Source: Betaproteobacteria bacterium RIFCSPLOWO2_12_FULL_64_23
Lineage (GTDB): Bacteria > Pseudomonadota > Gammaproteobacteria > Burkholderiales > SG8-39
Direction of reading: 5' to 3'
DNA length: 53,806 nucleotides
Assembly: GCA_001770575.1 (NCBI GenBank)
Contig: MERK01000111.1
Span: 1-53,806, forward strand
Made by a program: the position numbers and the translations under genes. This document shows, in pieces, positions 13,029 through 47,521 of the stretch. A model generated the notes under the pieces. That model ran no database searches. It saw nothing but the letters and a program-made list of their open reading frames with translations, and was not told where the DNA came from. Each line of letters opens with the position of its first letter. The stretch's first letter is position 1.

Positions 13029-13035
13029 CCGGGAT

Positions 13036-13854: not shown

Positions 13855-13861
13855 GCTCGCC

Positions 13862-15873: not shown

Positions 15874-16018
15874 GCCGCGCCCGCCGCGCCCGCCACCGCG
15901 CCCGCCGTCATTGCGCGCTCCCGCAGGAGGCTGTATATTTCCCGCACCGGGAAATGCAGACTCCCGGTCAGACGGTGTCCCGTCCAAGTTCTGCGACTCT
16001 CTTCGCGCGAGGATCATC

Positions 16019-19594: not shown

Positions 19595-19603
19595 GATTCC
19601 TCC

Positions 19604-20490: not shown

Positions 20491-20502
20491 GATGGTCTCC
20501 CC

Positions 20503-23421: not shown

Positions 23422-23430
23422 GGCGCCTCC

Positions 23431-23637
23431 TCAGACTTTCGCGGTTCGGTAGTAATTGCGGATGTGCTCGGAGGCGTGGTAACCCCTGGTCTTCTTCTTG
23501 CCCTCGCCGGTCACGGCCGGCTGCGGCTCGACCTGCGGCACGGTCTTCGCCACAATCGCGGCGGCGCTTGCCGCGCCGCCTGCGCCGACCGCGAGCAGGA
23601 AATTTCTGCGGCTCAGTTTGGTCTGGCCTTGGCTCAT
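23431..23637 (-). CDS. Small Tat-signal protein of the 'formate dehydrogenase region TAT target' type
   Basis: 68 aa with the twin-arginine motif SRRNFLLAVGAGGAA. Immediately upstream of fdhA. Confidence 0.7.
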   Translation of the reverse strand: MSQGQTKLSRRNFLLAVGAGGAASAAAIVAKTVPQVEPQPAVTGEGKKKTRGYHASEHIRNYYRTAKV

Positions 23638-23670
23638 GTTCGTCTCCTCACAAATGACCGCCGCTGACGG

Positions 23671-28667: not shown

Positions 28668-28710
28668 CGATGCCGGCGCACCCAAGCTGCTGCCGCATGA
28701 CGACTTTGCC

Positions 28711-29583
28711 ATGAAGCCGCGCCATCGTCCTGAAATCACCCGCGCCAGCCGCCCGCTCACTTTCGAGGTCGAGGCCATCAACGAACGCGGTGAGATGGTG
28801 CCCACCGCCGTCGCCGGCGAAAACCCGCTTACGCTCTATGTCGACAAGCGCGAGATCGTCACGCTGATGACCCTGGGCCAGGCGCCGGAAGCGCTGGCCA
28901 TCGGCTACCTGCGCAACCAGCGGCTGGTGCAGTCGATCGAAGAAATCGCCGCGGTGCAGGTGGATTGGGAGACCGACTCGGTGGTGGTGACCACGCGCAA
29001 GGCCACGAGCGGGGAAGCGCGCGCGCGCGCGAAGGGCATGACGGACAAAATGAAAAAGCGCACCGTCACCACCGGCTGCGGCCAGGGCACGGTGTTCGGC
29101 GACCTGATGCAGGAAATCGACCAGGTGAAGCTGCGCGCTGATGTCCGCCTGTCCGAGGAAACGCTGTACGCGCTGATGCAACAGCTACGCCAGCATGAAA
29201 CCATCTACAAGACTGCCGGCGCGGTGCACGGCTGCGCCCTGGCGACAAACGAGCCGGGGGCCAGCCGCATTCTCAGCTTCGTCGAAGACGTGGGGCGCCA
29301 CAACGCCGTGGACGCGATCGCCGGGCAGATGTGGCTGGAGCGCATCGACGGCTCGGACAAGATTTTCTATACCACCGGGCGGCTCACCTCGGAAATGGTG
29401 ATCAAGGCGGCGCAGATGTCGATCCCGTTCCTGGTGTCGCGCTCCGGCCTGACGCAGATGGGCCATGCGATCGCCCAAAAGATAGGCATCACCATGGTCG
29501 GCCGCGCCAGCGGCAGGCATTACCTGCTGTTTACCGGCAAGCAGCGCTTCGTGAAACCGATCGGCCCGACTCTACTCGCATGA
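28711..29583 (+). CDS. fdhD: Formate dehydrogenase sulfurtransferase/accessory protein FdhD
   Basis: 290 aa from the ATG at 28711. FdhD pattern (...TGCGQGTVFG..., GAVHGCAL, GRHNAVDAIAG, SRSGLTQMG). Confidence 0.88.
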   Translation: MKPRHRPEITRASRPLTFEVEAINERGEMVPTAVAGENPLTLYVDKREIVTLMTLGQAPEALAIGYLRNQRLVQSIEEIAAVQVDWETDSVVVTTRKATSGEARARAKGMTDKMKKRTVTTGCGQGTVFGDLMQEIDQVKLRADVRLSEETLYALMQQLRQHETIYKTAGAVHGCALATNEPGASRILSFVEDVGRHNAVDAIAGQMWLERIDGSDKIFYTTGRLTSEMVIKAAQMSIPFLVSRSGLTQMGHAIAQKIGITMVGRASGRHYLLFTGKQRFVKPIGPTLLA

Positions 29584-30194
29584 GCGACAGTCCCATAAAT
29601 GCCGGGCGCATCAACCACACGGTCACCGGACTCATACTTGCCGGCGGTCAGGGCCGGCGCATGGGCGGCGTCGACAAGGGACTGGAGATTTTCCGCGGCA
29701 AGCGCCTGGTCGACCACGTCTACGAGCGGCTCGCGCCGCAAGTCGGCGGCGTCATCATCAATGCGAACCAGAATCACGACGCCTACAGGACTTTCGGCGT
29801 GCGCGTGGTGAGCGACGCCATCGGCAATTTCGCCGGCCCGCTCGCAGGCTTGCACGCCGGATTGTCCATCCTGCGCCGCCCCTATCTGGTCTCGGTGCCC
29901 TGCGACTCGCCGTTTCTGCCCGAGGATCTGGTCGCGCGCCTGTATGCGGGGCTCGACGGCGCGGGTGCGGACCTCGCGGTGGCCAGGACCGGCAACCAGC
30001 CGCAACCCGTGTTCTGCCTCGCGCGCAAGAGCGTGCTCGAACACCTCGGCCTTTTCCTCAAGGGCGGCGGGCGCAAGGTCGACGCCTGGTATGCGACGCT
30101 GCGCGTGGCCGAGGTGGCGTTCGACGACGAGGCGGACGCCTTTTACAATATCAATACCAGCGATGAACTCAGGGCGATTGAAACAGCACCATAG
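29580..30194 (+). CDS. mobA: Molybdenum cofactor guanylyltransferase MobA
   Basis: 204 aa from the ATG at 29580 (ATGA overlap with fdhD). Motif LILAGGQGRRMGGVDKGL and the MobA fold pattern. Confidence 0.9.
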   Translation: MSDSPINAGRINHTVTGLILAGGQGRRMGGVDKGLEIFRGKRLVDHVYERLAPQVGGVIINANQNHDAYRTFGVRVVSDAIGNFAGPLAGLHAGLSILRRPYLVSVPCDSPFLPEDLVARLYAGLDGAGADLAVARTGNQPQPVFCLARKSVLEHLGLFLKGGGRKVDAWYATLRVAEVAFDDEADAFYNINTSDELRAIETAP

Positions 30195-30207
30195 CCGCGC
30201 CATAGTC

Positions 30208-31473
30208 ATGAAATCCTTAATCGAGATTATCGGCTGCATCGACGACTACGACCCGGACGCGCTCGCAGTGGACCAGGCGCGCGCGGTCGTGCGTGCCTTC
30301 ATCACACCGGTCACCACCAATGAAAGGATTGCGCTGCGTGCAGGCCTCGGACGCGTACTGGGCGAGGACATCGTCTCCACGCTCGACGTGCCGGCGCACG
30401 ACAACTCCGCCATGGACGGCTATGCCCTGCGCCATGCCGACCTGAACGCCGAGGGCGAGACGGTGCTGCGCCTCGCCGGCAGCGCTTTTGCCGGACGCCG
30501 GTTTGACGCCGCCATCGGACCGGGCGAATGCGTGCGCATCATGACCGGCGCGGTAATGCCGGACGGAGCCGACACGGTGGTGATCCAGGAAATCGTCCAA
30601 GCCGAAGGCAACGAAGTGCGCGTCCCCGCGGGCCAGAAGCGCGGCCAGAACCGGCGTCTTGCCGGCGAGGATCTGGCCGTGGGCAAAGCGGTGCTTCGGG
30701 CGGGGAGATCCATAGGACCTGCCGAACTCGGCTTGCTCGCTTCCCTGGGAATGGCTGAAGTGACGGTGCGCCGGCGGCTGCGCGTGGCTTTTTTTTCCAC
30801 CGGTGACGAACTGTCACAGGTCGGCACGCCCCTCGCGCCGGGTCAGGTGTACGACAGCAACCGCTACACGCTGTACGGCATGCTGACGCGCCTGGGCTGC
30901 GACATTATCGACATGGGCGTGGTGCGCGACGATCCGGCCAGTCTGGAGCGCGCGCTCAAGACCGCGGCGGCCGACGCGGATGCCGTCATCACCTCGGGCG
31001 GCGTGTCCGTGGGAGAAGCCGATTTCATCAGGGAACTGCTGTCCCGGCTGGGCGAGGTCGTGTTCTGGAAAATCGCGATGAAACCGGGCCGGCCGATGGC
31101 GTTCGGCAGAATCGGCTCGGCCAGCTTCTTCGGCCTGCCGGGCAACCCGGTGGCGGTGATGGTGACCTTCTATCAGTTCGTGCGCGAATCGCTGCTCGTT
31201 CTGTCCGGCCGCACGGACGACTGCGCGCTGCCGCTGTTGCGCGTGCCCTGCACTGCCGCCATCAGGAAGAATCCGGGGCGCACCGAGTTCCAGCGCGGCA
31301 CCCTGTCGCGCGACGCTCAGGGGCAATGGAGCGCATGCCCGACCGGCGCACAAGGCTCGGGCGTGCTGCGCTCGATGGCGGAAGCCAACTGCTTCATCGT
31401 GCTCGAGCATGAGCGCGGCCCGGTCAAGCCGGGCGACCTGGTGCAGGTGCAGCTGTTCGATGGGTTGGTTTAG
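30208..31473 (+). CDS. moeA: MoeA paralog (copy 2), molybdopterin Mo/W insertase
   Basis: 421 aa from the ATG at 30208. Same motif set as copy 1 (AMDGYAL, TGDELS, SGGVSVGEADF, PGNPVA) but clearly divergent in sequence. Confidence 0.88.
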   Translation: MKSLIEIIGCIDDYDPDALAVDQARAVVRAFITPVTTNERIALRAGLGRVLGEDIVSTLDVPAHDNSAMDGYALRHADLNAEGETVLRLAGSAFAGRRFDAAIGPGECVRIMTGAVMPDGADTVVIQEIVQAEGNEVRVPAGQKRGQNRRLAGEDLAVGKAVLRAGRSIGPAELGLLASLGMAEVTVRRRLRVAFFSTGDELSQVGTPLAPGQVYDSNRYTLYGMLTRLGCDIIDMGVVRDDPASLERALKTAAADADAVITSGGVSVGEADFIRELLSRLGEVVFWKIAMKPGRPMAFGRIGSASFFGLPGNPVAVMVTFYQFVRESLLVLSGRTDDCALPLLRVPCTAAIRKNPGRTEFQRGTLSRDAQGQWSACPTGAQGSGVLRSMAEANCFIVLEHERGPVKPGDLVQVQLFDGLV

Positions 31474-35482: not shown

Positions 35483-36082
35483 TCAGGCGTTGGCTACGCC
35501 CGCCTTGCGTCTGCCGGGAAACGCGAGCGCTTCGGTAAGGAAGTAGGCAGCCTGCGCGTACGAAGTCGGGCACAGCGCAAAGCACTCCTGGCAGTCCCAG
35601 CATTCCTTCGCTGCGATCTCGGGAATGAAACTGATCTCCCGCCGCGCGCCTCTTTCGATGAAGTCGACGGCGTTCTTCTGCTTGACCTCGGCGCAGTAGC
35701 GCACGCACAGGCCGCAGAGTATGCAGAACGAGGCGTCCTTCTCGAACCGGTCGCGGTCGGCGCGGTACTCGCGCGCCAGCGCCACGAGTTCGGGCGAGTT
35801 CGGCGCATGCGCGAGCAGTTCCTCCAGGATCACCCGGCGGATCTTGTCGACCCGCTCCGAGCGCGTGCGCACGACGAGGTCCTGCGCCACCGGGTAGAGG
35901 CAGGACACGACGTAATTCTTCCGTCCGCGCGCCTCCACTTCCACCATGCACATGCGGCAGGCGCCGAACGGCTCCAGCTTCTCGTGATGGCACAAGGTCG
36001 GTATGTGTATCCCCGCGGTCCGTGCCGCCTGCAGCACGGTCATGTCATCGCGGGCCTTGACCTCCCTGCCGTCGATCTGCAT
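35483..36082 (-). CDS. bamI: BamI-like subunit: NuoG/HndD N-terminal-type 2Fe-2S plus 4Fe-4S protein
   Basis: 199 aa from the ATG at 36082 (an alternative GTG at 36097 overlaps the bamH stop). 2Fe-2S ferredoxin-like N-terminus (CHHEKLEPFGACRMCMVEV) and CILCGLCVRYC. Last gene of the 8-gene operon. Confidence 0.75.
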   Translation of the reverse strand: MQIDGREVKARDDMTVLQAARTAGIHIPTLCHHEKLEPFGACRMCMVEVEARGRKNYVVSCLYPVAQDLVVRTRSERVDKIRRVILEELLAHAPNSPELVALAREYRADRDRFEKDASFCILCGLCVRYCAEVKQKNAVDFIERGARREISFIPEIAAKECWDCQECFALCPTSYAQAAYFLTEALAFPGRRKAGVANA

Positions 36083-36093
36083 CAGGACGTCGC

Positions 36094-37782
36094 TCACGTC
36101 GCTGCACTCCCCGCGGCTTTGCCGCCCTTGCCCTCGCTTCCCCGGGCGATCTGCGTCTCGTATTCGTCCTTGAAGTAGCGCAGCATGCTCTTCAGCGGAT
36201 CGGACGCGGTCCGTCCCAGCGCGCACAGGCAGGCAGCGCCGGTCACGTCGTTCAGGTCTTCCAGCCGCGCGATGTCGCCGTCCCGGCCTTTGCCTTTGGT
36301 GATGTTGGTCAGGACTTTCAGCGTCTGCCGCATGCCTTCGCGGCAGGGCACGCACTTGCCGCAGGATTCGTTGGTGAGGAACTCGAGGAAATAGCGCGCC
36401 ACGTCCACCATGTCGGTGTCCTCGTCCATCACCAGCAGGCCGCCGGCGCCGATCGGCGCGCCGAGCTTCGCAAGCTCGTCGAAATCGAGCGGCGCATCGA
36501 TCAGGTTCGCCGGAATGGACCCGCCCATGGGCCCGCCGAAATGCACCGCCTTGGCCGCCTTGCCGCCCGGGATGCCGCCGCCGATGTCATAGACGATCTT
36601 GCGCAGCGGCGTCCCCATCGGGACTTCCACCACACCGCTGTTGACCACGTTGCCCGACAAAGACACGAGCTTGGTTCCCTTGCTGCCCGCAGTGCCGATG
36701 CCGGCGTACCACTCGGCGCCGCGGCTGATGATCTGCGGCACGTTCGCCCAGGTCTCGACGTTGTTGAGGTTGCTCGGCCTGTTCCAGATCCCGGCGACCG
36801 AGGTGCGGATGTACTTGGGCCGCGGCTCCGGCGGGAGACCTTCGATCGAGCGCATCAGCGCGCTCGATTCGCCAGAGACAAAAATGCCGACGTCGAAGTG
36901 CACCTCGACGCGGAAATCGAAGCCGGAACCGAGAATATTCTCCCCCAGCAGCCCGTATTCCTCCGCCTGGGCGAGCGCCTGCTCGATGTGCCGGATGAGC
37001 TGCGGGGAGTCGTGGCGAGTGTAGATGAAACCGCGGTGCGAGCCGATTGCATAGGCGCCGATGATCAGACCCTCCAGCACCTTGTGCGGATTGCCGGTAA
37101 AGAGCGCTCGGTCCATGAACGCGCCGGGCTCGCCTTCGTGGGCATTGACGATGACGTACTTGTCTTTGCCGGGCGCATTCTTCGCGGTTTCCCATTTCTG
37201 CCCGGCGGGAAATCCGCCGCCGCCGCGGCCGCGCAGATTGGCCTTCTTTACCTCGTCGAGGACCTGGTCCGGTGTCATCTGGAACAGCGCTTTTGCGAGC
37301 GCCGCGTAGCCGCCCAGCGCCAGGTAGTCGTCGATGCGCATCGGGTCGATGCGCACGTTGTCGCCTATCAGCAGCCGCGTCTGGTGCTTGTAGAAAGGCA
37401 CCTCGCCCATGTGGACCGCGCGCTCGCCGGTGTCGGGGTGCGCATAGACCAGGCGCTCGACCACCGCTTTCTTCAGGGTGCTTGCGACGATTTCCGGGGC
37501 ATCCTCGGGCTTGACCTCGAAGTAGCAGACGTCGTCCGGTCCGACGACGACGTTGGGCCCTTTCTCGCAGTAGCCGTGACAGCCCGTGACCCGTACCTCG
37601 AGCCCGGCGTCGCGACCGAGCTTGCCGACTTCGGTCCTAAAGGCCTGTGCGACCCGGGCGGAATCCAGCCCGTGGCAGGCCGCGCCGGCGCAGACCGCGA
37701 TGCAGGGCTTGGCCGGATCGCGGGCGGCGACGATGCCCGCGCGAAAGTGTTCGAGTTCAGCGGCTGATTCGAGCCTGGTCAT
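36094..37782 (-). CDS. bamH: BamH-like subunit: NuoF/HoxF-type NAD(P)H-binding FMN flavoprotein with N-terminal thioredoxin-like 2Fe-2S domain
   Basis: 562 aa with the FMN/NADH site RGRGGGGFPAGQKWE, a C-terminal 4Fe-4S motif ESCGKCVPCREG, and N-terminal Cys pairs (CAGAACHG...GCHGYCEKGP). Confidence 0.82.
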   Translation of the reverse strand: MTRLESAAELEHFRAGIVAARDPAKPCIAVCAGAACHGLDSARVAQAFRTEVGKLGRDAGLEVRVTGCHGYCEKGPNVVVGPDDVCYFEVKPEDAPEIVASTLKKAVVERLVYAHPDTGERAVHMGEVPFYKHQTRLLIGDNVRIDPMRIDDYLALGGYAALAKALFQMTPDQVLDEVKKANLRGRGGGGFPAGQKWETAKNAPGKDKYVIVNAHEGEPGAFMDRALFTGNPHKVLEGLIIGAYAIGSHRGFIYTRHDSPQLIRHIEQALAQAEEYGLLGENILGSGFDFRVEVHFDVGIFVSGESSALMRSIEGLPPEPRPKYIRTSVAGIWNRPSNLNNVETWANVPQIISRGAEWYAGIGTAGSKGTKLVSLSGNVVNSGVVEVPMGTPLRKIVYDIGGGIPGGKAAKAVHFGGPMGGSIPANLIDAPLDFDELAKLGAPIGAGGLLVMDEDTDMVDVARYFLEFLTNESCGKCVPCREGMRQTLKVLTNITKGKGRDGDIARLEDLNDVTGAACLCALGRTASDPLKSMLRYFKDEYETQIARGSEGKGGKAAGSAAT

Positions 37783-37793
37783 GATTTGCCTGC

Positions 37794-38246
37794 CTATTGG
37801 TAGTCTTTCAGCACGTCCTCGACCTTGGCCGGCGTCATCCGGGCATGGTGCGTGCCGTTGACGATGATTTCAGGCCCGATGCTGCAGCTGCCGAGGCAGC
37901 TCCCCGTGTCCACGCTGTAGCGCCAGTTGGCGTCGGTCTCGCCCGGCTTGATGCCGGTGACGCGCTGCACCGCATCCAGCAGTTTGTTCGCGCCGCGCAG
38001 ATGGCAGGATATGCCGGTGCACACCTGCACCTCGTTGCGCCCCTTGGGCGTCAGGCTGAAGGTTTTGTACAGAGTGGCGATGCGCAGGACCCGGCTGAAC
38101 GGGATGTCCAGTGCCGCCGCGACCTGGTGCAGCACGTCCCGGGGCAGCCAGTGGTTCTGGTGCTGGATTTCCATCAGCACGTGGATCAGGTCGCCGGGCT
38201 TGCCGCGGTGTTTTTCGATGATCTGATCTATGTTGGCGCTATCCAT
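37794..38246 (-). CDS. bamG: BamG-like subunit: NuoE/HoxE-type 2Fe-2S protein
   Basis: 150 aa with the NuoE pattern (VCTGISCHLRG ... GSCLGSCSIGP). Confidence 0.82.
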   Translation of the reverse strand: MDSANIDQIIEKHRGKPGDLIHVLMEIQHQNHWLPRDVLHQVAAALDIPFSRVLRIATLYKTFSLTPKGRNEVQVCTGISCHLRGANKLLDAVQRVTGIKPGETDANWRYSVDTGSCLGSCSIGPEIIVNGTHHARMTPAKVEDVLKDYQ

Positions 38247-38312
38247 GGCCTCTTATCCAATCCCTATCAAAATCCGGTTTTCCGTCCGATTCTCGTGTCC
38301 CATCCGTGGCGC

Positions 38313-39080
38313 TCAGACCGCGGCCAGCAGCGACTGGCCAGCATCGAACTTGATCAGCCCGCGCTCGGTCAATTGCCGCAGATGCCGCGCGACCTCGGAC
38401 GGCTCCAGGGCCAGGCTCCCCGGAATCTCCATGGCCGCCGCCGGTTTTTTGCGCAGGAAACCCATGATGCGGCTCATCACCAGCTTGTCCAGGATCAGTT
38501 CGTTGAACAGTTGGTCGAACTCTTCGCTACCGAAGAATTTCCGGTAGCCTTCTTCGGTGCGCACCGGCACTCTGAGCCTTTCTCTCTCCACCAGTTTGAT
38601 GTAGGGGACGAGATCCTCGGCGGTTTGCATCCGCGATGAAAGTTCGGCGACGGCTATGCCTTCCGAAGAGCCCAGCGGCCCGAGGCTCTTGATCTTCGCG
38701 GAGAGCTCGTTCATGACCTCGGCGAAGCGCACGCCTTCGCCCGCCGACACCCATTCCAGCCGCAGCCGGTCCGGATTCACGCCCAGCTTCTCCAGGATGC
38801 GCTTGGCCATCAGGGTATTGCCCATCGCATCGTAGTTGCCCTCTGGATTGTAGTGGCAGTCGTTCAGGTGACAGCCGCCGATGAACACGGCGTCGGCTTT
38901 TTTCGCGAAGGCGCGGAAGATGAACGCCAGATCGACCCGGCCCGAGCACATCAGCCGGATCACGCGCAGATGCGGCGGATACTGGAAGCGCGAGACGCCG
39001 GCGAGGTCGGCCCCGCCATAGCAGCACCAGTTGCACAGGAATCCGACGATGGTCGGCTTGAACTCGGTTGGAGCAGCCAT
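38313..39080 (-). CDS. bamF: BamF-like subunit: MvhD/FlpD-type iron-sulfur protein with ~110 aa C-terminal extension (winged-helix-like)
   Basis: 255 aa with MvhD signature residues (FLCNWCCYGGADLAG, LMCSGRVD, GGCHLNDCHY). Cys is used throughout and there is no in-frame TGA. Confidence 0.8.
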   Translation of the reverse strand: MAAPTEFKPTIVGFLCNWCCYGGADLAGVSRFQYPPHLRVIRLMCSGRVDLAFIFRAFAKKADAVFIGGCHLNDCHYNPEGNYDAMGNTLMAKRILEKLGVNPDRLRLEWVSAGEGVRFAEVMNELSAKIKSLGPLGSSEGIAVAELSSRMQTAEDLVPYIKLVERERLRVPVRTEEGYRKFFGSEEFDQLFNELILDKLVMSRIMGFLRKKPAAAMEIPGSLALEPSEVARHLRQLTERGLIKFDAGQSLLAAV

Positions 39081-39152
39081 GGTTCAGTTCACTCGTTCGG
39101 TTGGCGATGCACGCACTGCGTTACATTCGGCCCGTCTGATCCGGTGCGCATC

Positions 39153-42100
39153 TCAGTGCGCAAGCGCGGCATCGATCTGGCCGAACACTTCGTCGTCGGT
39201 GTAATGCTTCAGAAACACCGCGCCTGACGGACACTTCGCGTTGCACAGGCCGTCTCCCTTGCACAGCACGGGATTGATCGTGGCTTTCTTGCCGCGCTTT
39301 GTTTCGCGGAACTCGATCGCCCCGTACGTACAGGAGGTAATGCAGGCCCCGCAGGAGACGCAAAGGCTCTCGTCCACCTCGCACACGGAACCGGAGGCGA
39401 CGACGGTGTCGTGCGTAAGCAGCGTCAGGGCGCGGCCGGCCGCGCCGTACGCCTGGCTGATCACTTCGGACAGGTGCTTGGGATACTGCGCGGTCCCGCA
39501 TAGATAGACGCCTTCCGCGGCGAAATCGACCGGCCGCAGTTTCACGTGCGCTTCCTGGAAAAAGCCGTCCGGACCGAGCGGCACCTTGAACAGGCGCGCC
39601 GTGTCCTCGCTGCCGGCCGACGGTATAACCGCAGCCGACAGGACCACGGTATCGGCATCGATGGCGAGCCTCTTGCCCAGCACCGGATCGGTCACCGTCA
39701 CTTTCAGCACACTGCGTCCGCCCTCCTCGACGGCTTCCACCTGGGGCTTGTCCTGCGGCTCAAAGCGGATGAACCTGACGTCCTTGCCCGATGCTTCCAG
39801 GTAATAGTCCTCGTTGAAGCCGTAGGTCCGCATGTCGCGGAACAGCACGTAGATGTCCATGTCCTTGTTGACGGACTTGAGCTTCAGCGCGTTCTTCATC
39901 GCGCCGCTGCAGCAGACGCGGGAGCAGTAGTTCCGGTCTTCCTGCCTACAGCCCACGCACTGGATCATGACCAGACTCCGCGCCTTGCGCACCTCTTCGT
40001 CGCCGCCGGCGATTCTCTCTTCCAGCTCGAGTTGGGTCATGACCCGGGAATCCTGTCCGTACAGGTACTCGGTCGGCTTGTACTCGTCGGCACCGGTGGC
40101 GATGATGGCCGCGCCGTGCTTGATCTCCTGCACCCGGCCCTTGGACTTCACCTTGGTGAGGAAATTGCCCACGTATCCGGAGACGTCGGTGATGATGGCG
40201 TCGGTGATGACCCGGATCAGCTGATGCCGGTAGGTCTTCTTCTTCAGATCGTTGAGGTAGGCCTGCACGTCGAGCCCTTCGACCGTATAGTGAATGCGGC
40301 GCGCCATGCCGCCGAGGTCGGAGGCTTTCTCGATGAGATAGGTCTGGAAGCCCTGCTCGGCCAGCGTCAGGGCGCTGGTCATCCCGGCCACGCCTCCGCC
40401 GACGACCAGGGCGGCCTTGTTCACCGGCAGGGAGAATTCATCCAGCGGCTCCAGCAGGGCGGCCCGCGCCACCGACATGCGCACGATGTCCTTCGCCTTC
40501 TTCGTCGCGTCCGCCTGCTCCTTGGAGTGGACCCAGGAGCAATGCTCGCGGATGTTCGCCATGTCGAAGAAATACTGGTTGATGCCCGCCTCGCGCAGGG
40601 TGTCGCGGAACAGCGGCTCGTGCGTCCTGGGCGTGCACGCGGCGACCACGACCCGGTTCAGACCCTTGTCGCGGATGGTGTCCGAAATCGCCTTGGCCGT
40701 ATTCGTCGCGCAGGCGAACAGGCTCTCCTCGGCATGCACCACATTGCCCAGGGTCCTGGAGTATTCGACGACCGCGGGCACGTCCACCACGCGGCCGATG
40801 TTGGCGCCGCAGCGGCAGACGAAAACGCCGACCTTCGCTTCTTCCTTGGTGACGTCCTTCTCCAGCGGGTATACCCGTTCCTGGCTCAGCCGTCCGCGCC
40901 GCGCCTTCAGCATCTGGCCGGACAGAGCCCCGGCCGCGCTCGCGCTCATAACGGCTTCGGGGATGTCCATCGGACCGCGGAAGGCACCGCTGATGAAAAC
41001 CCCGGCGCGCGTGGTCTCGATCGGGTTCACCGGATCGGTCTTGCAGAATCCCTGGGGTCCCAGCTCGACGCCGAACTTTTGCGCAAACGCCTTGGCATCG
41101 GCGGGCGGGTTGAGCCCGACGGACAGCACCACCAGCTCGAATTCCTCTTCCTTCACGCCGGCGTCGTTGGTGGCATAGCGGATGGTGATGTTCTTCGTGA
41201 CCGGATCTTCCCCGCCTATGGAGACATAGCTGCGGACGAATTTCACGCCGGGCAGGTTCTCCGCCCGCTGGTAGAAGCGCTCGAAGTCCTTGCCGTAGGA
41301 GCGGATGTCGTTGTGGAAAATCGTCGCCTGCATCTCCGGCACGTGGTCCTTGGCCAGGATCACCTGTTTTTGCGTGTACGAACAGCACACCGCGGAGCAA
41401 TAGGTGTTGCCGCCGGGGATCACCTGCCTGGAACCGACGCAGTGTATCCAGGCGATCTTTTGCGGATGCTTCTTGTCCGACGGGCGCAGGATGTGCCCGT
41501 CGTGCGGCCCGGTGGCGCAGAGCAGCCGCTCGAAGTCGAGGCTGGTGACCACGTTCTCGTAGGTGCCGTAGCCGTAGTCGCCCCGCAGCTTGGGGTCGAA
41601 AGTCTCGTAGCCGGGCGAGAGCACGATCGCCCCGACCTTGACTTCGACTTTCTCCGGCGTCTGGTTGAAGTTGATGGCGTCGTTCTCGCACACGCCCTGG
41701 CAAATCGAGCAGGTCTTGTCCTGCAGATAGAGGCAGGTCTCGTCGATGTAGGTCACGAGCGGCACCGCCTGCGAGAAGTAGATGTGCACCGCCTTGTTCA
41801 ATGACAGGTTCTGGTTGAACGGGTCCGGAATCTTGACCGGGCAGTACTCGACGCAGACGGTGCAGCCGGTGCACTTGTCCTCGTCGATATACCGCGGTTT
41901 CTTGTTCAGGGTCACCTTGAAGTTGCCGGCCGATCCTTCCACGCCGACCACCTCGGTGTAGGTCATGATTTCGATGTTGGGCTGCCGGTCGCACTCGATG
42001 AACTTCGGCGATTCGATGCACATCGAACAGTCGTTGGTGGGAAAGGTTTTGTCGAGCTGGGCCATCTTCCCACCGATGGTGGGTGTCTTTTCCACCAGGT

Positions 42101-42263
42101 AGACCTTGAAGCCGGAGGTCGCCAGATCGAGCGCCGCCTGGATGCCGCTGATGCCACCGCCGACGACCATCACGTCGCCGCGCTGATCGTCATGCGCACG
42201 CAGGGAGCGCTGACCCACCGCTTCGTGCGCGTGTTCGATTGCGCGTTCTAGTGTGTGTGCCAC
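39153..42263 (-). CDS. bamE: BamE-like subunit: double HdrA-type FAD/FeS protein
   Basis: 1036 aa with two dinucleotide-binding HdrA modules (VMVVGGGISGIQAALDLA... and ALVVGGGVAGMTSALTLAEQG...), several ferredoxin motifs (CTGCTVCVEYCP, CVSCGACITSC, CNAKCP) and HdrA-type Cys clusters. Confidence 0.85.
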   Translation of the reverse strand: MAHTLERAIEHAHEAVGQRSLRAHDDQRGDVMVVGGGISGIQAALDLATSGFKVYLVEKTPTIGGKMAQLDKTFPTNDCSMCIESPKFIECDRQPNIEIMTYTEVVGVEGSAGNFKVTLNKKPRYIDEDKCTGCTVCVEYCPVKIPDPFNQNLSLNKAVHIYFSQAVPLVTYIDETCLYLQDKTCSICQGVCENDAINFNQTPEKVEVKVGAIVLSPGYETFDPKLRGDYGYGTYENVVTSLDFERLLCATGPHDGHILRPSDKKHPQKIAWIHCVGSRQVIPGGNTYCSAVCCSYTQKQVILAKDHVPEMQATIFHNDIRSYGKDFERFYQRAENLPGVKFVRSYVSIGGEDPVTKNITIRYATNDAGVKEEEFELVVLSVGLNPPADAKAFAQKFGVELGPQGFCKTDPVNPIETTRAGVFISGAFRGPMDIPEAVMSASAAGALSGQMLKARRGRLSQERVYPLEKDVTKEEAKVGVFVCRCGANIGRVVDVPAVVEYSRTLGNVVHAEESLFACATNTAKAISDTIRDKGLNRVVVAACTPRTHEPLFRDTLREAGINQYFFDMANIREHCSWVHSKEQADATKKAKDIVRMSVARAALLEPLDEFSLPVNKAALVVGGGVAGMTSALTLAEQGFQTYLIEKASDLGGMARRIHYTVEGLDVQAYLNDLKKKTYRHQLIRVITDAIITDVSGYVGNFLTKVKSKGRVQEIKHGAAIIATGADEYKPTEYLYGQDSRVMTQLELEERIAGGDEEVRKARSLVMIQCVGCRQEDRNYCSRVCCSGAMKNALKLKSVNKDMDIYVLFRDMRTYGFNEDYYLEASGKDVRFIRFEPQDKPQVEAVEEGGRSVLKVTVTDPVLGKRLAIDADTVVLSAAVIPSAGSEDTARLFKVPLGPDGFFQEAHVKLRPVDFAAEGVYLCGTAQYPKHLSEVISQAYGAAGRALTLLTHDTVVASGSVCEVDESLCVSCGACITSCTYGAIEFRETKRGKKATINPVLCKGDGLCNAKCPSGAVFLKHYTDDEVFGQIDAALAH

Positions 42264-42290
42264 GACTCTGTTCCTCGGCTTGCGCCCTGC

Positions 42291-43442
42291 CTAAATGGCT
42301 TCCCGGATAACTTCGGTGATGTCCTTCACCTCGATCGCATCTCCACCTTTCACATTCAGTCTGCTGTCCTCGAAGTTGGTGATGCAGTAAGGACAGGAGG
42401 TCGCCAGAACCTGTGCCCCGACGCCCATCGCCTGCGCCAGCCTCAGGTCGGAGAAGCGTTCGCACTTGGGGGTTTCCATCCAGATCCGGCCACCGCCGCC
42501 GCCGCAGCAGAAGCTGTTCTTGCGCGATTCCGGCATTTCGGCGAGTTGCAGGCCGGGCACCTTCTTCAGCGCTTCCCGCGGCTGGTCATAGACGCCGTTG
42601 TGCCGGCCGAGGTAGCAGGGGTCGTGGTAGGTCACCGTTTTGGCGAATTCCTTCTTCAGTTCCAGCCTGCCTTCGGCGATCAGGCTGTGGACGAGCTGCG
42701 AGATGTGCACCACCTCGAAGTGCACCATGAACTCCGGGTACTCCCTGGTGAAGCTGTGATAGCAATGCGGCGAGGACACCAGGACCTTCTTCACCCCGCG
42801 TTCGACGAAGGCGCGGATGTTCTGCCGCGCCAGAGCCTTGAACAGCGCCTCGTCGCCGGTCTTGCGGATGCTCTCGCCGCAGCAGCTTTCCTCCGCGCCG
42901 AGGATGCCGAAATCCACTCCCGCCTTATTGAGGATTTCGACGGTGGCGCGGGCAATCTTCCGCGCCCTGGGGTCGTAGGACAGGTAACAGCCGGGGGAAT
43001 ACAGGAATTCCATTCCCTCGGTGAAGGACTTGACGGACAGGCCCTCGGCCCATTTGGCGCGCTTGGCGCGCTCTTCGCCGAACGGGTTGCCCTCGGCACG
43101 CAGGTTGGCGGCCACCACCCGGATCGGCTGCACCGAGTGCGGGAATACGTCGTACTCGGTGGCGATCCGGCGCAGCGCCACGCCGGACTCGATCTGCTTG
43201 ACATCGCGCGGGCAGACCTGCGGGCACTTGCCGCAGGTGGTGCAGCGCCAGATGTCTTCGCTCTCGATCTCGGTCAGACCGAAGGTCGCCTCGCGCACGA
43301 GCTTGCGCATGCTGAAGTTGCGCACCCGGTTCCACGGGCAGACCGTATCGCACAGGCCGCACTGGTAGCAGTACTTGAACGCATCGCCGCCGCTCGCCTT
43401 GATCGCGTCGATGATTTCCTTGAAGGGGGTAACCAATTCCAT
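42291..43442 (-). CDS. bamD: BamD-like subunit: HdrD-type (HdrC+HdrB fusion) FeS protein with two CCG domains
   Basis: 383 aa with two 4Fe-4S motifs (CYQCGLCDTVCP, CTTCGKCPQVCP), followed by CCG-domain signatures (ESCCGES..., PCYLGRH..., NSFCCGGGGG). Confidence 0.85.
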   Translation of the reverse strand: MELVTPFKEIIDAIKASGGDAFKYCYQCGLCDTVCPWNRVRNFSMRKLVREATFGLTEIESEDIWRCTTCGKCPQVCPRDVKQIESGVALRRIATEYDVFPHSVQPIRVVAANLRAEGNPFGEERAKRAKWAEGLSVKSFTEGMEFLYSPGCYLSYDPRARKIARATVEILNKAGVDFGILGAEESCCGESIRKTGDEALFKALARQNIRAFVERGVKKVLVSSPHCYHSFTREYPEFMVHFEVVHISQLVHSLIAEGRLELKKEFAKTVTYHDPCYLGRHNGVYDQPREALKKVPGLQLAEMPESRKNSFCCGGGGGRIWMETPKCERFSDLRLAQAMGVGAQVLATSCPYCITNFEDSRLNVKGGDAIEVKDITEVIREAI

Positions 43443-43470
43443 GTTCGTTCCCTGCCCCTGTTCGCGCGCC

Positions 43471-43644
43471 GTCCTAGTACGATGACACGCTAATTTCGAA
43501 GCGTGCCTGCCTTATAGGTGTGGGAGCGAGCTTGCTCGCGAATCTTGGAATTCGCGAGCAAGCTCGCTCCCACAAGGTGGTGCGCCAGCACGGACAAGTT
43601 GCTCGCCACATTGTTTCGCAATTAAGGTGTCATCGTACTAGGAC
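43471..43644. repeat. 174-bp nested inverted-repeat (MITE-like) element between bamC and bamD, containing a REP-like palindrome
   Basis: Outer perfect 18-bp inverted repeats GTCCTAGTACGATGACAC (43471..43488) and its reverse complement (43627..43644). The right repeat overlaps the bamC stop codon. The inner perfect palindrome has 24-bp arms, GTGGGAGCGAGCTTGCTCGCGAAT (43520..43543 / 43550..43573), identical in its first 22 nt to the arms at 8641..8698. Confidence 0.85.
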
Positions 43645-44177
43645 TTCGACATCCTTGCGACCGTGTCCAGCACCTGCTGCAGCCCGTGCTTGTCGATGAG
43701 CGCCTCGATGCCGACCTCGATGTCAGGCGGGCTCGCCTGCGGCTCCTCGACTTCCTCTTCGCGCTCTTCGTAAATCAGCGCGTCGTTCAGGCACCACTCC
43801 ACGCACTTGGGTTTCGCCAGCGGCGGCTCGTCTTCGCACATATCGCATTTCAGCGGCAGACCGGAATCGGGTTCCTTGAACAGGTCGCGCGAGGGACAGG
43901 ACGCGCGGCAGAAATCGCACTCGTCGTATTTCTTGCCGTCGATGATGTAGGTATCGCGGCCGGTGCATTCCGCCGCCGTGTATTCGCCGGCATAGACCGG
44001 AAGGTAGATGTCGCGCAGAGGCTCGCGCACGATCCGGATGCGCGAGCGCGCCGGGTTGTTGCTGCTATAGCGCGGCGAGGCATGAAACAGGGAGCAGATG
44101 ACCTCGCACGCCCGACAGCCACTGCACTTGTCGGCGTCGATGGTGATGGATTTGATCTTCTTCATGACCTTAGGCAT
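43638..44177 (-). CDS. bamC: BamC-like subunit: 4Fe-4S ferredoxin partner of the AOR-family enzyme
   Basis: 179 aa from the ATG at 44177 (8-nt overlap with bamB; an alternative ATG at 44165). Cluster motifs CSGCRACEVICS, CDFCRASCP, CDMC...CVEWC. Confidence 0.8.
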   Translation of the reverse strand: MPKVMKKIKSITIDADKCSGCRACEVICSLFHASPRYSSNNPARSRIRIVREPLRDIYLPVYAGEYTAAECTGRDTYIIDGKKYDECDFCRASCPSRDLFKEPDSGLPLKCDMCEDEPPLAKPKCVEWCLNDALIYEEREEEVEEPQASPPDIEVGIEALIDKHGLQQVLDTVARMSKS

Positions 44178-46197
44178 GGCTGAGAACCTCCTTCCCTTCC
44201 TCTGCTTCTCCGGTCGGCGTCTTCTGGCTGGTCGCGTTCGCCTTGCCGAGGATCCCCCTTTGCTCCAGGTCATCGGCGACACAGGCCAGGTCGAGATCCA
44301 GCAGCGACTCCTTGGTGGGAATGCCGTTGCTGTCAAAGCCCTTGAGCTTGTAGTACGCATCCAGCAGTTTCGTTTCCAATTCGGGAAAGCGCTTCTTCCA
44401 ATGGTCTTCCGGCGGTTTGTCGTCGGCACGCCGCATTCCGCGTCTCACGTTGATGGCGCGCAGCAAGGTCCGGTTTCTCGTGGCCGCCTTCCAGATCCCG
44501 GCTTCGTCGAAGTCGATGCCGGTCCCCGCCGAAACGAAACTGGGGAAATTGTGGATGTGGTACGGGGGCTTCAGCGGGAAGGACGACAGCCCGGCACAGG
44601 TCCCGAGGGCGTCGTCGAGGTAATGCATCTTCTCCTGCCAGTCCACGATGTCGCAACTGGCTTCGATAGTCGGATAAAGCGGGTTGGAATTGTCTCCGCG
44701 CAGCTCCCAGTCCAGCAGGTACTGCTTGAACTTCTCGTGCGGAACCTGGAACCAGTCCTTGACGAACGCTTCGCGCTCTTCCATGGTCGGGAACGGCGCC
44801 TGGGGAAACTGACCCTCGATCTGGGTGATGTTGATCTTCTCTCCGGTCGAGTACATCAGGTAGTAGACCGGGTTCAGCATGCCGAGCTTCAGCGGCAACT
44901 GCTCGTGTTTCTTGATCGTGTTGTGATCGAATTTCTCCGCGCCCTTGCCGATGCGCCTGGCCGCCCAGTAGGTGCCGTCGGCGAGCACGTCGCCGATCCC
45001 TTCGCGCCTGACGATCCGGTCGAGCAACCAGAAGAAGCGACCCTCGACGTCGGCCGGCATGCCCGGAAAATCCGCGTCGGTGAGGATGCCGGCCTCGAGC
45101 AGCTCGAGCGCGAAGGCCATGACCTGCGGCGCCGAGAATCCGTCCACGCCGTATTCGGTCGCGCGCTGCGCGATCTTGAAACCGAACTCCAGGTCGGAAT
45201 AGGCCGCCATGGTGTAAGTGAGCTTGGAGTAGCACTTCATCATGTAGGTAGGCTGCCCCGGAACAGAGATGGTTGCCCCGCATTTCATCGGACAGTTGTA
45301 GCAGCCGATCAGGCGCGTGCGCACGCTCTCCTGGGTCTCGCGCCATTTTTCCTCTATTTCATGGGTCCAGAAGTCCTTGCGCCGGGTGCGCGCATTGCCC
45401 CACATGAAATTGGTGGTATGCCACTCCTCGTCGACAATTCGCATCTCCTGCGGGGAACCGAGCACGGCCAGGATAGCGGGGACCCCCGGAATCGGATGAT
45501 CTTCCCTGAACTTGATGTATTTCAGCACGTCGTCGCACAGGCTCATGAATTCGGCCGGCCGGGCGACGTTGACGTCCTTGGTTCCGCGTACGGCGATCGC
45601 CTTGAGTCCCTTGTCGCCCATGACCGCGCCGATGCCGCCGCGGCTGGCACTGGACCTGCCCTGCTCGATGGAAGCGTAAAAGACCCTGTTCTCCCCGGCC
45701 AGGCCGATGGAGGCCACCTGGGCGTCCGGCTCCTTCAGTTCCCGTCGGATGCATTCGGCGGTTTCGGTGGCACCCTTGCCGCGCAGGTGCGTCGCGTCGC
45801 GGATTTCGACCTTGTCGTTGTGTATCCACAGATAGACCAGCTCGGGCGACTTGCCGCGTAGGATCACCTTGTCGTAACCGGCATGCTTCAACTCTGGCGC
45901 CCAGAATCCGCCCATCATCGAATAGGCGAGCAACTGAGTCTGTGGAGAAAACGTGGAGACGATGGTGCGATTGCAGCCGGGTGCCGCAGTGCCGCAAAGA
46001 AGGCCGGAAGCGAAGATCAGCAGATTGTCTTCGGAAAACGCGTCGGTCTCGGCAGGAACCCTGTCCCACAGTATTCTGGCGCTGGTGCCAAGCCCTCCCA
46101 GATGCAGTTTAGTCAGTTCCGGATCGGACTCCACCCTGTCGATACTGCCGCGGGAAAGATCGATTTCCAGCTCGAACCCTGTTTCCGCATACCGCAT
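44170..46197 (-). CDS. bamB: BamB-like tungsten-pterin enzyme of the aldehyde:ferredoxin oxidoreductase (AOR) family (class II benzoyl-CoA reductase catalytic subunit type)
   Basis: 675 aa with AOR N-terminal and pterin-binding motifs (GGLGTSARILWD, GRSSASRGGIGAVMGDKGLKAIAV, CYNCPMKCG). A strong AGGAGAGGA SD precedes the ATG at 46197. The call as BamB-type rests on the diagnostic downstream gene order (FeS, HdrD, HdrA x2, MvhD, NuoEFG-like) and on recalled similarity to Geobacter BamB. Confidence 0.85.
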   Translation of the reverse strand: MRYAETGFELEIDLSRGSIDRVESDPELTKLHLGGLGTSARILWDRVPAETDAFSEDNLLIFASGLLCGTAAPGCNRTIVSTFSPQTQLLAYSMMGGFWAPELKHAGYDKVILRGKSPELVYLWIHNDKVEIRDATHLRGKGATETAECIRRELKEPDAQVASIGLAGENRVFYASIEQGRSSASRGGIGAVMGDKGLKAIAVRGTKDVNVARPAEFMSLCDDVLKYIKFREDHPIPGVPAILAVLGSPQEMRIVDEEWHTTNFMWGNARTRRKDFWTHEIEEKWRETQESVRTRLIGCYNCPMKCGATISVPGQPTYMMKCYSKLTYTMAAYSDLEFGFKIAQRATEYGVDGFSAPQVMAFALELLEAGILTDADFPGMPADVEGRFFWLLDRIVRREGIGDVLADGTYWAARRIGKGAEKFDHNTIKKHEQLPLKLGMLNPVYYLMYSTGEKINITQIEGQFPQAPFPTMEEREAFVKDWFQVPHEKFKQYLLDWELRGDNSNPLYPTIEASCDIVDWQEKMHYLDDALGTCAGLSSFPLKPPYHIHNFPSFVSAGTGIDFDEAGIWKAATRNRTLLRAINVRRGMRRADDKPPEDHWKKRFPELETKLLDAYYKLKGFDSNGIPTKESLLDLDLACVADDLEQRGILGKANATSQKTPTGEAEEGKEVLSHA

Positions 46198-46394: not shown

Positions 46395-46423
46395 ATAATG
46401 CTTATTTATCGGGCCTACGTCAA
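46395..46423 (-). promoter_or_regulatory. Candidate sigma70 promoter for the bam operon
   Basis: The minus strand reads TTGACG (46423..46418), a 17 nt spacer, then CATTAT (46400..46395), inside the only AT-rich stretch of the 424-bp divergent region. This implies a ~190-nt leader. Based on sequence pattern only. Confidence 0.35.
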
Positions 46424-46437
46424 TTGATTTACGTCAA
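46416..46437. promoter_or_regulatory. Direct repeat TACGTCAA x2 (14-bp period), candidate regulator binding site
   Basis: TACGTCAA at 46416..46423 and 46430..46437. The first copy embeds the palindrome TCAATTGA and overlaps the candidate -35 of the bam promoter. Confidence 0.4.
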
Positions 46438-46621: not shown

Positions 46622-47521
46622 ATGAACGAGGTGCGAAAACTTCTGCGGTCACGCTTTCCCGGGCTGCACGCGCGCATCGAGCAGACGCTCATCGAGGCCG
46701 AGGCGCGCTACAACCGCCAGGCCAAGCAGGCGCCCTCGGAATTCCTCCTGGAGCATACCCGGCGCACGGCGGCCATTGCCCACAAGATAGCCACAATGGA
46801 ACGAGTCGATGCGCTCCTGCCGGTGCTGGTCGCGCTCTACCATGATGCAGGCAAATTTCATGAGGGCGAATACCACAAGGACGACGTGGCGGAAGAGGAG
46901 CACGCGGCGATCCTCGCCGAGCGCATGCTCGCCGAGTCCGGCGCGGAACGCGCCGATATCGAGGCTGTGGGCAGCGCGCTGCGCGCCCTGTACGACGACC
47001 GGTTGCCGTGCGTCGAATCCTGCCGCATCGTGCAGGATGCGGACCGGCTGGACAAGCTCGGCGCGTTGGGCGTCGGCGCCTTCTTCACCAAGGCAACGCT
47101 GCGCGGGCGCGGCCTCGTCGATGCGCTGGTGCACACGCTGAGCCGGGAACTGAGCTACGCCCTCGCGGCGCCGCGATCGATGCTGACCGAAACCGGACAG
47201 ATGCTCGCCCGCGAGCAGACGCCGAAGACGGTCGCTTTCTTTGACGAGCTTCTGCACGACTTGGAACGTTGGGGCATCGCCGCTTTCGAACGCCGCACCC
47301 TCCTGGTGGAAGGGGATTTCCGCACCCGCGGCGGCGCTCGTGTGCAAAAAACGCAGGTGACCATCGTCATGCCGCGCGACTGCCCGGATTGCGAAGCGCC
47401 GCTCGAGCTGACCCATCGGTGCGAACGCGGCCTGAAATGCGAGATGCTCAAGGCACGCTTCGCCTGCCAGTCCTGCGACTATGCGCGGGACATCTCCTTC
47501 TGCCTCCCGGTATTAGCCTGA
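46622..47521 (+). CDS. HD-domain phosphohydrolase with C-terminal Cys-rich (zinc-ribbon-like) domain
   Basis: 299 aa. HD motif (LYHDAGK ... QDADRLDKLGA) and a C-terminal CPDC...C...C...CQSC pattern. Divergent from bamB. Confidence 0.75.
   Translation: MNEVRKLLRSRFPGLHARIEQTLIEAEARYNRQAKQAPSEFLLEHTRRTAAIAHKIATMERVDALLPVLVALYHDAGKFHEGEYHKDDVAEEEHAAILAERMLAESGAERADIEAVGSALRALYDDRLPCVESCRIVQDADRLDKLGALGVGAFFTKATLRGRGLVDALVHTLSRELSYALAAPRSMLTETGQMLAREQTPKTVAFFDELLHDLERWGIAAFERRTLLVEGDFRTRGGARVQKTQVTIVMPRDCPDCEAPLELTHRCERGLKCEMLKARFACQSCDYARDISFCLPVLA

Follow-up and report, generated by a model that had tools for sequence, protein, structure and literature searches.

We analysed a 53,806-nt stretch of contig MERK01000111.1 (hereafter the window), which belongs to a metagenome-assembled genome (MAG) from the Rifle aquifer, Betaproteobacteria bacterium RIFCSPLOWO2_12_FULL_64_23. 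At positions 35483 to 46197 it carries eight genes, bamB to bamI, which very likely form an operon for a functional class II benzoyl-CoA reductase (BCR), namely, the tungsten-dependent and ATP-independent type of this enzyme, acting on benzoyl-CoA or a close analogue. The locus is a variant of a known enzyme, and not a new kind of system. What is new here, judging from the comparison of sequences, is the clade-wide loss, from the flavoprotein subunit BamH, of the ferredoxin-input domain together with the aspartates of the flavin mononucleotide (FMN) pocket. The reading that we favour, and consider probable, is that the locus represents a lineage-specific variant of class II BCR, common to MAGs of Burkholderiales and Rhodocyclales, whose electron input would be NADH only. 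The literature searched, which was incomplete, contained no account of a class II BCR from Betaproteobacteria and none of a short BamH.

A complete bamBCDEFGHI cluster in a betaproteobacterial genome

The gene content of the window was established by calling open reading frames (ORFs) and by assigning Pfam domains and NCBIfam families to the encoded proteins. The cluster consists of the following genes, given in the order of transcription:

44170-46197, minus strand: bamB, 675 aa, catalytic subunit with tungsten-bis-metallopterin, AOR family (Pfam AFOR_N and AFOR_C)
43638-44183, minus strand: bamC, 181 aa, electron-transfer subunit with three [4Fe-4S] clusters, 12 Cys
42291-43442, minus strand: bamD, 383 aa, HdrD/HdrBC-like high-potential output subunit (Fer4_8 and two CCG domains)
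39153-42263, minus strand: bamE, up to 1036 aa, fused double HdrA-like flavoprotein with the bifurcating flavin adenine dinucleotide (FAD) (NCBIfam HdrA2)
38313-39080, minus strand: bamF, 255 aa, MvhD-like adaptor with a C-terminal winged helix-turn-helix (HTH) (Pfam FlpD)
37794-38246, minus strand: bamG, 150 aa, NuoE/HydC-like [2Fe-2S] subunit (2Fe-2S_thioredx)
36094-37782, minus strand: bamH, 562 aa, NuoF/HydB-like FMN/NADH subunit in a short form (thioredoxin-like 2Fe-2S, Complex1_51K, SLBB and NADH_4Fe-4S)
35483-36082, minus strand: bamI, 199 aa, NuoG-N/HoxU-like subunit with one [2Fe-2S] and two [4Fe-4S] clusters (Fer2_4 and Fer4_7)

An earlier note, made from the letters of this DNA, had described these genes as eight co-directional ORFs forming a complete BamBCDEFGHI-type cluster. 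Both statements were borne out: all eight lie on the minus strand and none is interrupted, and the Pfam and NCBIfam composition, as well as the matches of BamB and BamC to the structure PDB 4Z3W, identify the set as complete. Two of the ORF extents listed for these genes had to be shortened, namely, the last gene from 290 to 199 aa and bamC from 263 to 181 aa, both on the minus strand. The conserved start of bamI is at 36082, and the longer ORF of 290 aa (to 36355) would overlap bamH. The start of bamE (GTG at 42263) is uncertain by about 20-30 codons, the GenBank version being 1005 aa long. From bamB to bamI the genes are spaced, in order, by -14, 195, 27, 72, 66, 11 and 11 nt, the start of bamC overlapping the stop of bamB by 14 nt.

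As a comparison set we used 80 bamB loci (L003-L082), obtained from a scan of species-representative genomes. For BamD to BamI, the residues of Geobacter metallireducens were compared by using about 55 non-betaproteobacterial loci as proxies and the residue numbers of the preprint on its structure, the PDB copy being of BamBC only. The identical eight-gene order was found in 16 betaproteobacterial loci and in 17 others. Given the recurrence of this order in dozens of public loci, and scores against 4Z3W of 1136 bits for BamB and 257 bits for BamC, the identity of the cluster is far beyond chance. The host, taken in the earlier note for a beta- or gammaproteobacterium, was confirmed to be a betaproteobacterium, since the loci with 76-93% BamB identity all come from Burkholderiales and Rhodocyclales MAGs, labelled Burkholderiales, Comamonadaceae, Ramlibacter, Rhodoferax, Sterolibacterium, Sulfuritalea and Rhodocyclaceae. 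In GenBank the genes of the cluster are called 'aldehyde dehydrogenase', 'NADH dehydrogenase', 'hydrogenase iron-sulfur subunit' and 'heterodisulfide reductase', and IMG labels cluster members BamB.

Overall, the locus resembles the Bam[(BC)2DEFGHI]2 complex of Geobacter metallireducens in its gene order, the BamB residues involved in chemistry, the three-cluster BamC, the double-HdrA BamE with its Cys pair and Lys, the long BamF with winged HTH, and in BamG and BamI. It differs from that complex in a BamH that is devoid of the domain bearing the H1 and H2 clusters and has His and Glu in place of two motif aspartates; Cys instead of selenocysteine (Sec) at BamF position 19, together with Cys at BamE position 82, where most non-betaproteobacterial lineages have Sec; and its setting, a betaproteobacterial host in which no bamVW-type or lower-pathway genes adjoin the operon.

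BamB groups with the characterized enzyme

By sequence, the BamB of the window is an ortholog of the characterized BamB, and not a paralog. First, phmmer aligned its residues 1-651 without gaps to PDB 4Z3W_A, from Geobacter metallireducens, with 1136 bits and 72.6% identity, whereas other AOR proteins score at most 207 bits. Second, in a neighbour-joining tree (no bootstrap) it falls within a monophyletic betaproteobacterial clade, which is sister to all other BamB sequences including that of Geobacter; the BamB paralogs, with about 55% identity, fall outside the BamB clade. Third, the tungsten ligand Cys322 is kept, as are Glu251, Glu257, His260 and the cysteines 299, 302 and 306 of the iron-sulfur cluster. 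Of these residues, Cys322 is known to ligate tungsten, Glu251 and His260 to form a proton relay, and Glu257 to belong with the former Zn site (PMC12096430). The earlier note had seen in this protein a BamB-like member of the AOR family; phylogeny and active-site alignment place it inside the BamB clade, with BamB-specific residues present.

Position 255, which is His in Geobacter, is Val in the window. A review calls His255 invariant; across the 80 bamB loci the position is His in 28, and Val, Ile, Phe, Ala or Asn elsewhere, Glu251, Glu257 and His260 being invariant. The idea that loss of His255 denotes an altered active site was ruled out, as position 255 varies in every clade and, because of this, is not diagnostic.

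In the closest relatives a second, divergently transcribed BamB/BamC-like pair, about 55% identical to BamB, is found just upstream of bamB (L003 5983-8513, L005 6212-8939, L009 6697-8673, L010 2872-4779 and L013 6127-8798), and none is present in the window. The pair of L003 adjoins a thiamine diphosphate-dependent enzyme (PRK06112, 943 bits) and a short-chain dehydrogenase/reductase, and that of L009 lies near a PaaK-like aryl-CoA ligase.

The other subunits retain their cofactor ligands

The cluster ligands of BamC, BamD, BamE, BamF, BamG and BamI are all retained in the window. BamC, whose match is to PDB 4Z3W_E, and BamI each have 12 Cys that are invariant across loci, and BamG is recognized as 2Fe-2S_thioredx with an E-value of 2e-44, its Cys76, Cys81, Cys117 and Cys121 being invariant. 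In BamD the first CCG motif ends in C227-Y-H-S, so that the fifth Cys is absent and the arrangement is C-x-x-S/T. In the BamD of Geobacter, too, the distal non-cubane cluster is disrupted, and the high-potential electron is handed on to an electron-transfer flavoprotein (ETF) (bioRxiv 10.64898/2026.04.10.717634). BamE matches NCBIfam HdrA2 with 943 bits over three stretches and has two FAD-binding halves. Its Lys299, which follows the VCC motif and is invariant across loci, probably corresponds to Lys280 of Geobacter BamE, a residue described together with the bifurcating FAD and Cys59-Cys62 (bioRxiv 10.64898/2026.04.10.717634).

In BamF, Pfam detects FlpD at residues 11-134 and, weakly, an ArsR HTH at residues 203-244. 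The winged-helix tail of about 110 aa on this MvhD-like subunit, which had been singled out in the earlier note as an oddity, turned out to be a standard feature of BamF: the Geobacter protein exceeds MvhD in length by more than 100 aa, and its terminal winged HTH touches BamI in the structure obtained by cryo-electron microscopy (cryo-EM) (bioRxiv 10.64898/2026.04.10.717634). The same 2026 preprint makes outdated the statement that BamDEFGHI are not biochemically resolved (bioRxiv 10.64898/2026.04.10.717634).

BamH has lost the ferredoxin-input domain and the FMN-pocket aspartates

As seen by cryo-EM, the BamGH part of the Geobacter complex is a module of the HydBC type fed by NADH and reduced ferredoxin, in which external ferredoxin is taken by the H1 and H2 [4Fe-4S] clusters of a C-terminal ferredoxin-like domain of BamH, and Asp219 lies near N5 of FMN (bioRxiv 10.64898/2026.04.10.717634). 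This C-terminal domain of about 96 aa, with two [4Fe-4S] clusters, is missing from the BamH of the window, which stops 17 residues past the NADH_4Fe-4S domain, its Pfam domains ending at residue 543 and its tail being free of Cys. HydB homologues from the PDB (597-630 aa) align to it only up to residue 545, and each continues for about 70 more residues. The tail that follows the core is 0-19 aa long, without Cys or cluster motifs, in 16 of the 16 betaproteobacterial loci with a complete gene, and 92-97 aa long, with 10-11 Cys, in 16 non-betaproteobacterial loci. In the betaproteobacterial loci bamI begins about 12 nt after the short bamH. Truncation of BamH by artefact was ruled out: bamI begins 11 nt past the stop and in another frame, the part of the bamI ORF upstream of its start encodes no Cys, and 16 independent MAGs share the short form.

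The second change concerns the FMN pocket, whose motif reads NAHEGEPG in the window and N-[AG]-H-E-G-E in all betaproteobacterial loci. The long BamH of 642 aa has NADEGDPG at this place (D216 and D219), and NuoF of E. coli has NADEMEPG, that is, with Glu at the second acidic position. The D216H/D219E change co-varies perfectly with the loss of the ferredoxin domain. This includes L057, a locus from a MAG labelled Desulfobacteraceae and the only non-betaproteobacterial one with a decayed domain; as it fits the pattern too, domain loss and motif change can be said to go together. The BamH of L057 (9150-10933) is of the betaproteobacterial type, with 73% identity and the NAHEGE motif. Its ferredoxin domain is broken by a stop, the distal remnant still being readable out of frame, and the BamF of this locus keeps TGA. 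L057 may represent an intermediate stage of evolution or the lineage of a donor, or may result from an error in assembly.

The nearest structural relatives of BamH are the HydABC/Bfu modules, the best PDB matches being Thermotoga HydB (8A6T) and Acetomicrobium 7T2R_B, with 569-590 bits. BamH shares with them the thioredoxin-like [2Fe-2S] N-terminus, the FMN/NADH core, the [4Fe-4S] helical bundle and the HydC-like partner, in this case BamG. However, HydB has 597-630 aa, with two C-terminal [4Fe-4S] clusters and NADEGDPG, where the BamH of the window has 562 aa and NAHEGEPG. A different likeness is that to NuoE, NuoF and NuoG-N of complex I, which is non-bifurcating: in both cases the flavoprotein is devoid of a C-terminal ferredoxin domain and has Glu at the second position, and electrons would run from NADH through FMN to iron-sulfur clusters. 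Unlike BamH, NuoF has no N-terminal [2Fe-2S] domain; the two are 38% identical in the case of E. coli NuoF, and the first Asp of the motif is His in BamH.

In eighteen non-betaproteobacterial loci (L023, L030, L041, L045, L053 and L075 among them) bamF is not followed by bamGHI; they make up about half of the non-betaproteobacterial bamBCDEF loci whose downstream sequence is long enough. The alignment of their BamF extends to about residue 217 only. The absence of bamGHI from these loci marks the electron-input module as the variable part of the family.

Cysteine replaces selenocysteine in BamE and BamF

A comparison at the level of codons showed that position 19 of BamF, which is Sec in Geobacter (bioRxiv 10.64898/2026.04.10.717634), is Cys in the window and in every betaproteobacterial locus, and TGA in 39-40 non-betaproteobacterial loci. 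Position 82 of BamE, the second of Cys79-x-x-Cys82, a pair located close to the bifurcating FAD, behaves in the same way, TGA being found in 39-43 non-betaproteobacterial loci. The operon is thus free of Sec, as had been deduced from its uninterrupted ORFs. A few non-betaproteobacterial loci also have Cys at these positions, so Cys instead of Sec does not exclude membership of the family. The gene for the alpha subunit of a formate dehydrogenase in the window (20503-23421) is likewise uninterrupted, and the simplest explanation would be that the host does not use Sec.

Lower-pathway genes are linked to sister operons

In agreement with the earlier note, a scan of the 53.8 kb detected no dienoyl-CoA hydratase (dch), hydroxyacyl-CoA dehydrogenase (had) or ring hydrolase (oah). 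Such genes do occur in other betaproteobacterial loci, namely, L029 (Rhodoferax), L050 and L065 (Comamonadaceae), where had-oah-dch lie directly upstream of bamB and in the same direction, and exceed the equivalog cut-offs of NCBIfam (had, TIGR03201, 560 bits; oah, TIGR03200, 621 bits; dch, TIGR03189, 380 bits). These three loci share the Sec-free operon with a short BamH. Any dch, had or oah gene within 10 kb was found at 19 of the 80 bamB loci; since the remaining 61 have none, the absence of these genes from the window says little. In L050, a Liv/Urt-type ATP-binding cassette transporter operon (1988-6795) is located directly upstream of had-oah-dch-bamB, and may be an uptake system for aromatic acids.

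A proposed electron path and its alternatives

With the ferredoxin entry domain and the semiquinone-stabilising Asp both missing, BamGHI is most likely a simple NADH:iron-sulfur oxidoreductase. In the mechanism that we propose, BamGHI would serve as a plain NADH dehydrogenase module, passing electrons from NADH to FMN, to [4Fe-4S] and to the clusters of BamI, and would not act as a confurcating input of NADH and reduced ferredoxin of the Geobacter type. From BamI the electrons would reach the bifurcating FAD of BamE through BamF, and HdrA-type bifurcation at this site would be the sole energy-coupling step. One electron would go uphill by way of BamC to the tungsten-pterin of BamB, where benzoyl-CoA would be reduced to 1,5-dienoyl-CoA, and the other downhill by way of BamD to a high-potential acceptor, and finally to the quinone pool of a host that respires nitrate or oxygen. 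Expression would probably be induced anaerobically through an FNR-type box, and tungsten would be supplied via the neighbouring Tup and molybdenum cofactor (Moco) genes. That the input is NADH only we hold with some reserve, at slightly less than an even chance. It is tempting to speculate further that the betaproteobacterial class II BCRs are a natural confurcation-free version of the enzyme, in which NADH alone, via a complex-I-like BamGHI, drives just one bifurcation of the HdrA type, with benzoyl-CoA and a high-potential respiratory acceptor as its two electron sinks, a generalization that is more tentative still.

The energetics of this proposal were estimated with potentials of -320 mV for NADH, -622 mV for benzoyl-CoA and +16 mV for ETF (bioRxiv 10.64898/2026.04.10.717634; PMC12096430). 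With ETF as the acceptor, NADH alone is computed to give a favourable margin of about 17 mV per electron, which corresponds to roughly -7 kJ for each benzoyl-CoA, and NADH plus ferredoxin a value of about -41 kJ. A ubiquinone- or nitrate-linked sink, as expected in such hosts, would widen the energetic margin.

Several observations weigh against this interpretation. The driving force of the NADH-only reaction is thin if ETF (+16 mV) accepts the electrons. The N-terminal [2Fe-2S] domain of BamH (2Fe-2S_thioredx, residues 24-101) and the four-Cys BamG are retained, both belonging to the bifurcating HydBC architecture, and ferredoxin might dock elsewhere. Asp219 of Geobacter was equated with the second Asp of the motif by the numbering of 642-aa homologues, and not from the Geobacter sequence itself. 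Genes for dch, had, oah, CoA ligase and ETF were not found by the Pfam and NCBIfam scans of the 53.8-kb window, and the loci with 76-93% BamB identity are all from MAGs, with no cultured strain among them. Moreover, in the Rhodoferax MAG locus L029 a two-subunit 2-oxoacid:acceptor oxidoreductase (3348-5998, minus strand; alpha subunit TIGR03710, 528 bits), similar to 2-oxoglutarate:ferredoxin oxidoreductase (KGOR), is divergent from had-oah-dch-bamB, which hints that reduced ferredoxin is still relevant. This arrangement is presumably comparable to that of the KGOR genes beside the class I bcr genes of Thauera. The flanks of the betaproteobacterial loci have no conserved ferredoxin, ETF or KGOR partner, the KGOR-like enzyme being present in L029 only, one of about 24.

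One alternative is that this is an ordinary class II BCR, with confurcation of NADH and ferredoxin as in Geobacter, in which the domain loss from BamH is functionally neutral and ferredoxin docks on the exposed [2Fe-2S] of BamG or BamH, on BamI or on BamC. The conservation of every other subunit and cluster ligand, the retention of BamG and of the N-terminal [2Fe-2S] domain, and the KGOR-like oxidoreductase of L029 all agree with it. Yet the domain that was lost is the stated site of ferredoxin entry (bioRxiv 10.64898/2026.04.10.717634), its loss is always paired with replacement of the FMN-pocket Asp, which suggests changed flavin chemistry and not a neutral deletion, and the KGOR linkage is confined to a single locus; we therefore regard this alternative as unlikely.

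Improbable, in our judgement, is a role outside the benzoyl-CoA pathway, in which the complex dearomatises another aryl-CoA (for instance, a substituted benzoyl-CoA) or serves in the low-potential reduction of a non-aromatic compound. The earlier note had left room for such a role by holding that the substrate need not be benzoyl-CoA, and the lack of dch, had, oah and ligase genes within 53.8 kb, the Val at position 255 of the Zn/proton-relay motif, which is His in Geobacter, and the existence in related MAGs of BamB paralogs without an assigned substrate could be read in its favour. It was not borne out, given that BamB groups with the characterized enzyme (72.6% identity, against about 55% for the paralogs, which stand apart) and retains Glu251, His260 and Cys322; that position 255 is variable in every clade, also among loci flanked by had-oah-dch; that sister betaproteobacterial operons are joined to had-oah-dch; and that 61 of the 80 bamB loci are equally devoid of these genes nearby. 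A further alternative is that the cluster is a horizontally acquired relic, no longer a reductase in this host. A patchy distribution, a repetitive extragenic palindromic (REP)-like element between bamC and bamD, and genes that go unrecognised in the GenBank annotation would fit a relic. The idea is made highly improbable by the eight ORFs, which are intact and retain every metal ligand in 16 MAGs from several genera (protein identity 60-94%), and by a conserved promoter box and co-located tungsten-uptake and Moco genes.

Putative promoter region and neighbouring genes

The features located upstream of and within the operon are as follows:

46395-46437, minus strand: putative bamB promoter, with an FNR/CRP-type box, TTGACGTAAATCAA, at 46424-46437 and a sigma-70-like -35 (TTGACG) and -10 (CATTAT)
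46622-47521, plus strand: gene for an HD-domain phosphohydrolase (Pfam HD, HDIG), divergent from bamB
43471-43644, no strand: REP-like nested palindrome in the bamC-bamD spacer, with 30-nt outer arms that are 90% complementary and a perfect 25-nt inner hairpin at 43519-43574

The box TTGACGTAAATCAA is the sole TTGA-N6-TCAA in the window, where 0.43 are expected per 53.8 kb, and it lies in the 425-nt intergenic region between bamB and the HD gene, directly upstream of the -35/-10 pair, with its centre about 42 nt upstream of the predicted start. Such a distance is typical of FNR class II promoters. A box with no more than one mismatch is found upstream of bamB in seven relatives (L004, L008-L012 and L014), and this candidate FNR-type box suggests oxygen-responsive control of the bam operon. 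FNR-family regulators are known to control class I BCR genes in such hosts (AadR, AcpR). The class I enzymes of denitrifying Betaproteobacteria (BcrABCD/BzdNOPQ) share with the present locus the reaction, the niche and the class of the host; however, they belong to unrelated protein families, and no ATP-binding subunits are encoded here.

Orthologues of the HD gene (cluster 5) lie beside bam in 11 betaproteobacterial loci (L004, L008-L013, L015, L018, L021 and L026). In subclade A they are transcribed divergently from bamB, and in subclade B they follow bamI. The HD gene is apparently outside the bam set described for Geobacter. The core of the REP-like element has a second copy at 8643-8696, near moaE, with 0 matches expected by chance, and in L004, the closest relative, the bamC-bamD spacer measures only 33 nt. 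As a speculation, a stabilising hairpin after bamC might skew expression, as the Geobacter complex contains two copies of BamBC for each BamD-I. A scan of the whole window at the Rfam gathering thresholds revealed no riboswitch or RNA element near bam. Its only hit was a chrB-b RNA motif (RF03086, 65.5 bits) at 15947-15994 on the plus strand, between the gene for a ModE/periplasmic binding protein (PBP) regulator and a chromate-transporter gene (16531-17877).

Genes for tungstate uptake and for the cofactor are found in two groups:

8597-15873, no strand given: tungstate-uptake and cofactor genes as a set (NCBIfam, Pfam), made up of the next seven entries
8725-9180: MoaE
9436-10872: MoeA
10653-11159: MobB
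12333-13094: TupB-like, 174 bits
13036-13917: TupA-like, 223 bits, below the equivalog cut-off
13862-14671: TupA-like, 167 bits, below the equivalog cut-off
14791-15873: ModE/PBP regulator
27573-31473, plus strand: second group (Pfam), with MoaA (27573-28667), FdhD (28588-29583) and a second MoeA (29944-31473)

MoaA, MobA and MoeA also precede bamB in loci of the Sterolibacterium/Sulfuritalea type. Near the Tup set, in the region 18536-26387, an FDH3-type formate dehydrogenase is encoded, with an alpha subunit of 972 aa, a beta subunit (338 bits, above the cut-off) and a cytochrome b; after these genes come a polyferredoxin of 697 aa and then an ORF of 290 aa without a family match.

Implications

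The main value of this locus lies in the domain loss and in the probable occurrence of class II ring reduction in Betaproteobacteria. Class II BCR is the textbook case of biology below the potential of ferredoxin, and the 2026 Geobacter structure accounts for this reduction by confurcation of NADH and ferredoxin coupled to HdrA-type bifurcation (bioRxiv 10.64898/2026.04.10.717634). An intact and widespread lineage that has lost both Sec residues, the aspartates of the FMN pocket and the domain for ferredoxin entry is a natural experiment on the essential parts of this 1-MDa machine.

The locus would also extend ATP-independent ring reduction to Burkholderiales and Rhodocyclales from aquifers, soils and permafrost, groups that are usually credited with class I enzymes or oxygenases. 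This has a bearing on the interpretation of bamB and bcr as marker genes in surveys for bioremediation. Generic GenBank labels ('aldehyde dehydrogenase' and the like) render class II capacity invisible in standard annotation. According to the textbook rule, class I BCR belongs to facultative anaerobes and denitrifiers, and class II to strict anaerobes (bioRxiv 10.64898/2026.04.10.717634; PMC9290046; PMC12096430); Georgfuchsia toluolica, for example, uses a class I BCR (PMC9290046). If the confurcation-free proposal is true, facultative anaerobes that respire nitrate or oxygen would dearomatise without ATP and without low-potential ferredoxin, and the rule that class II means strict anaerobes would be overturned.

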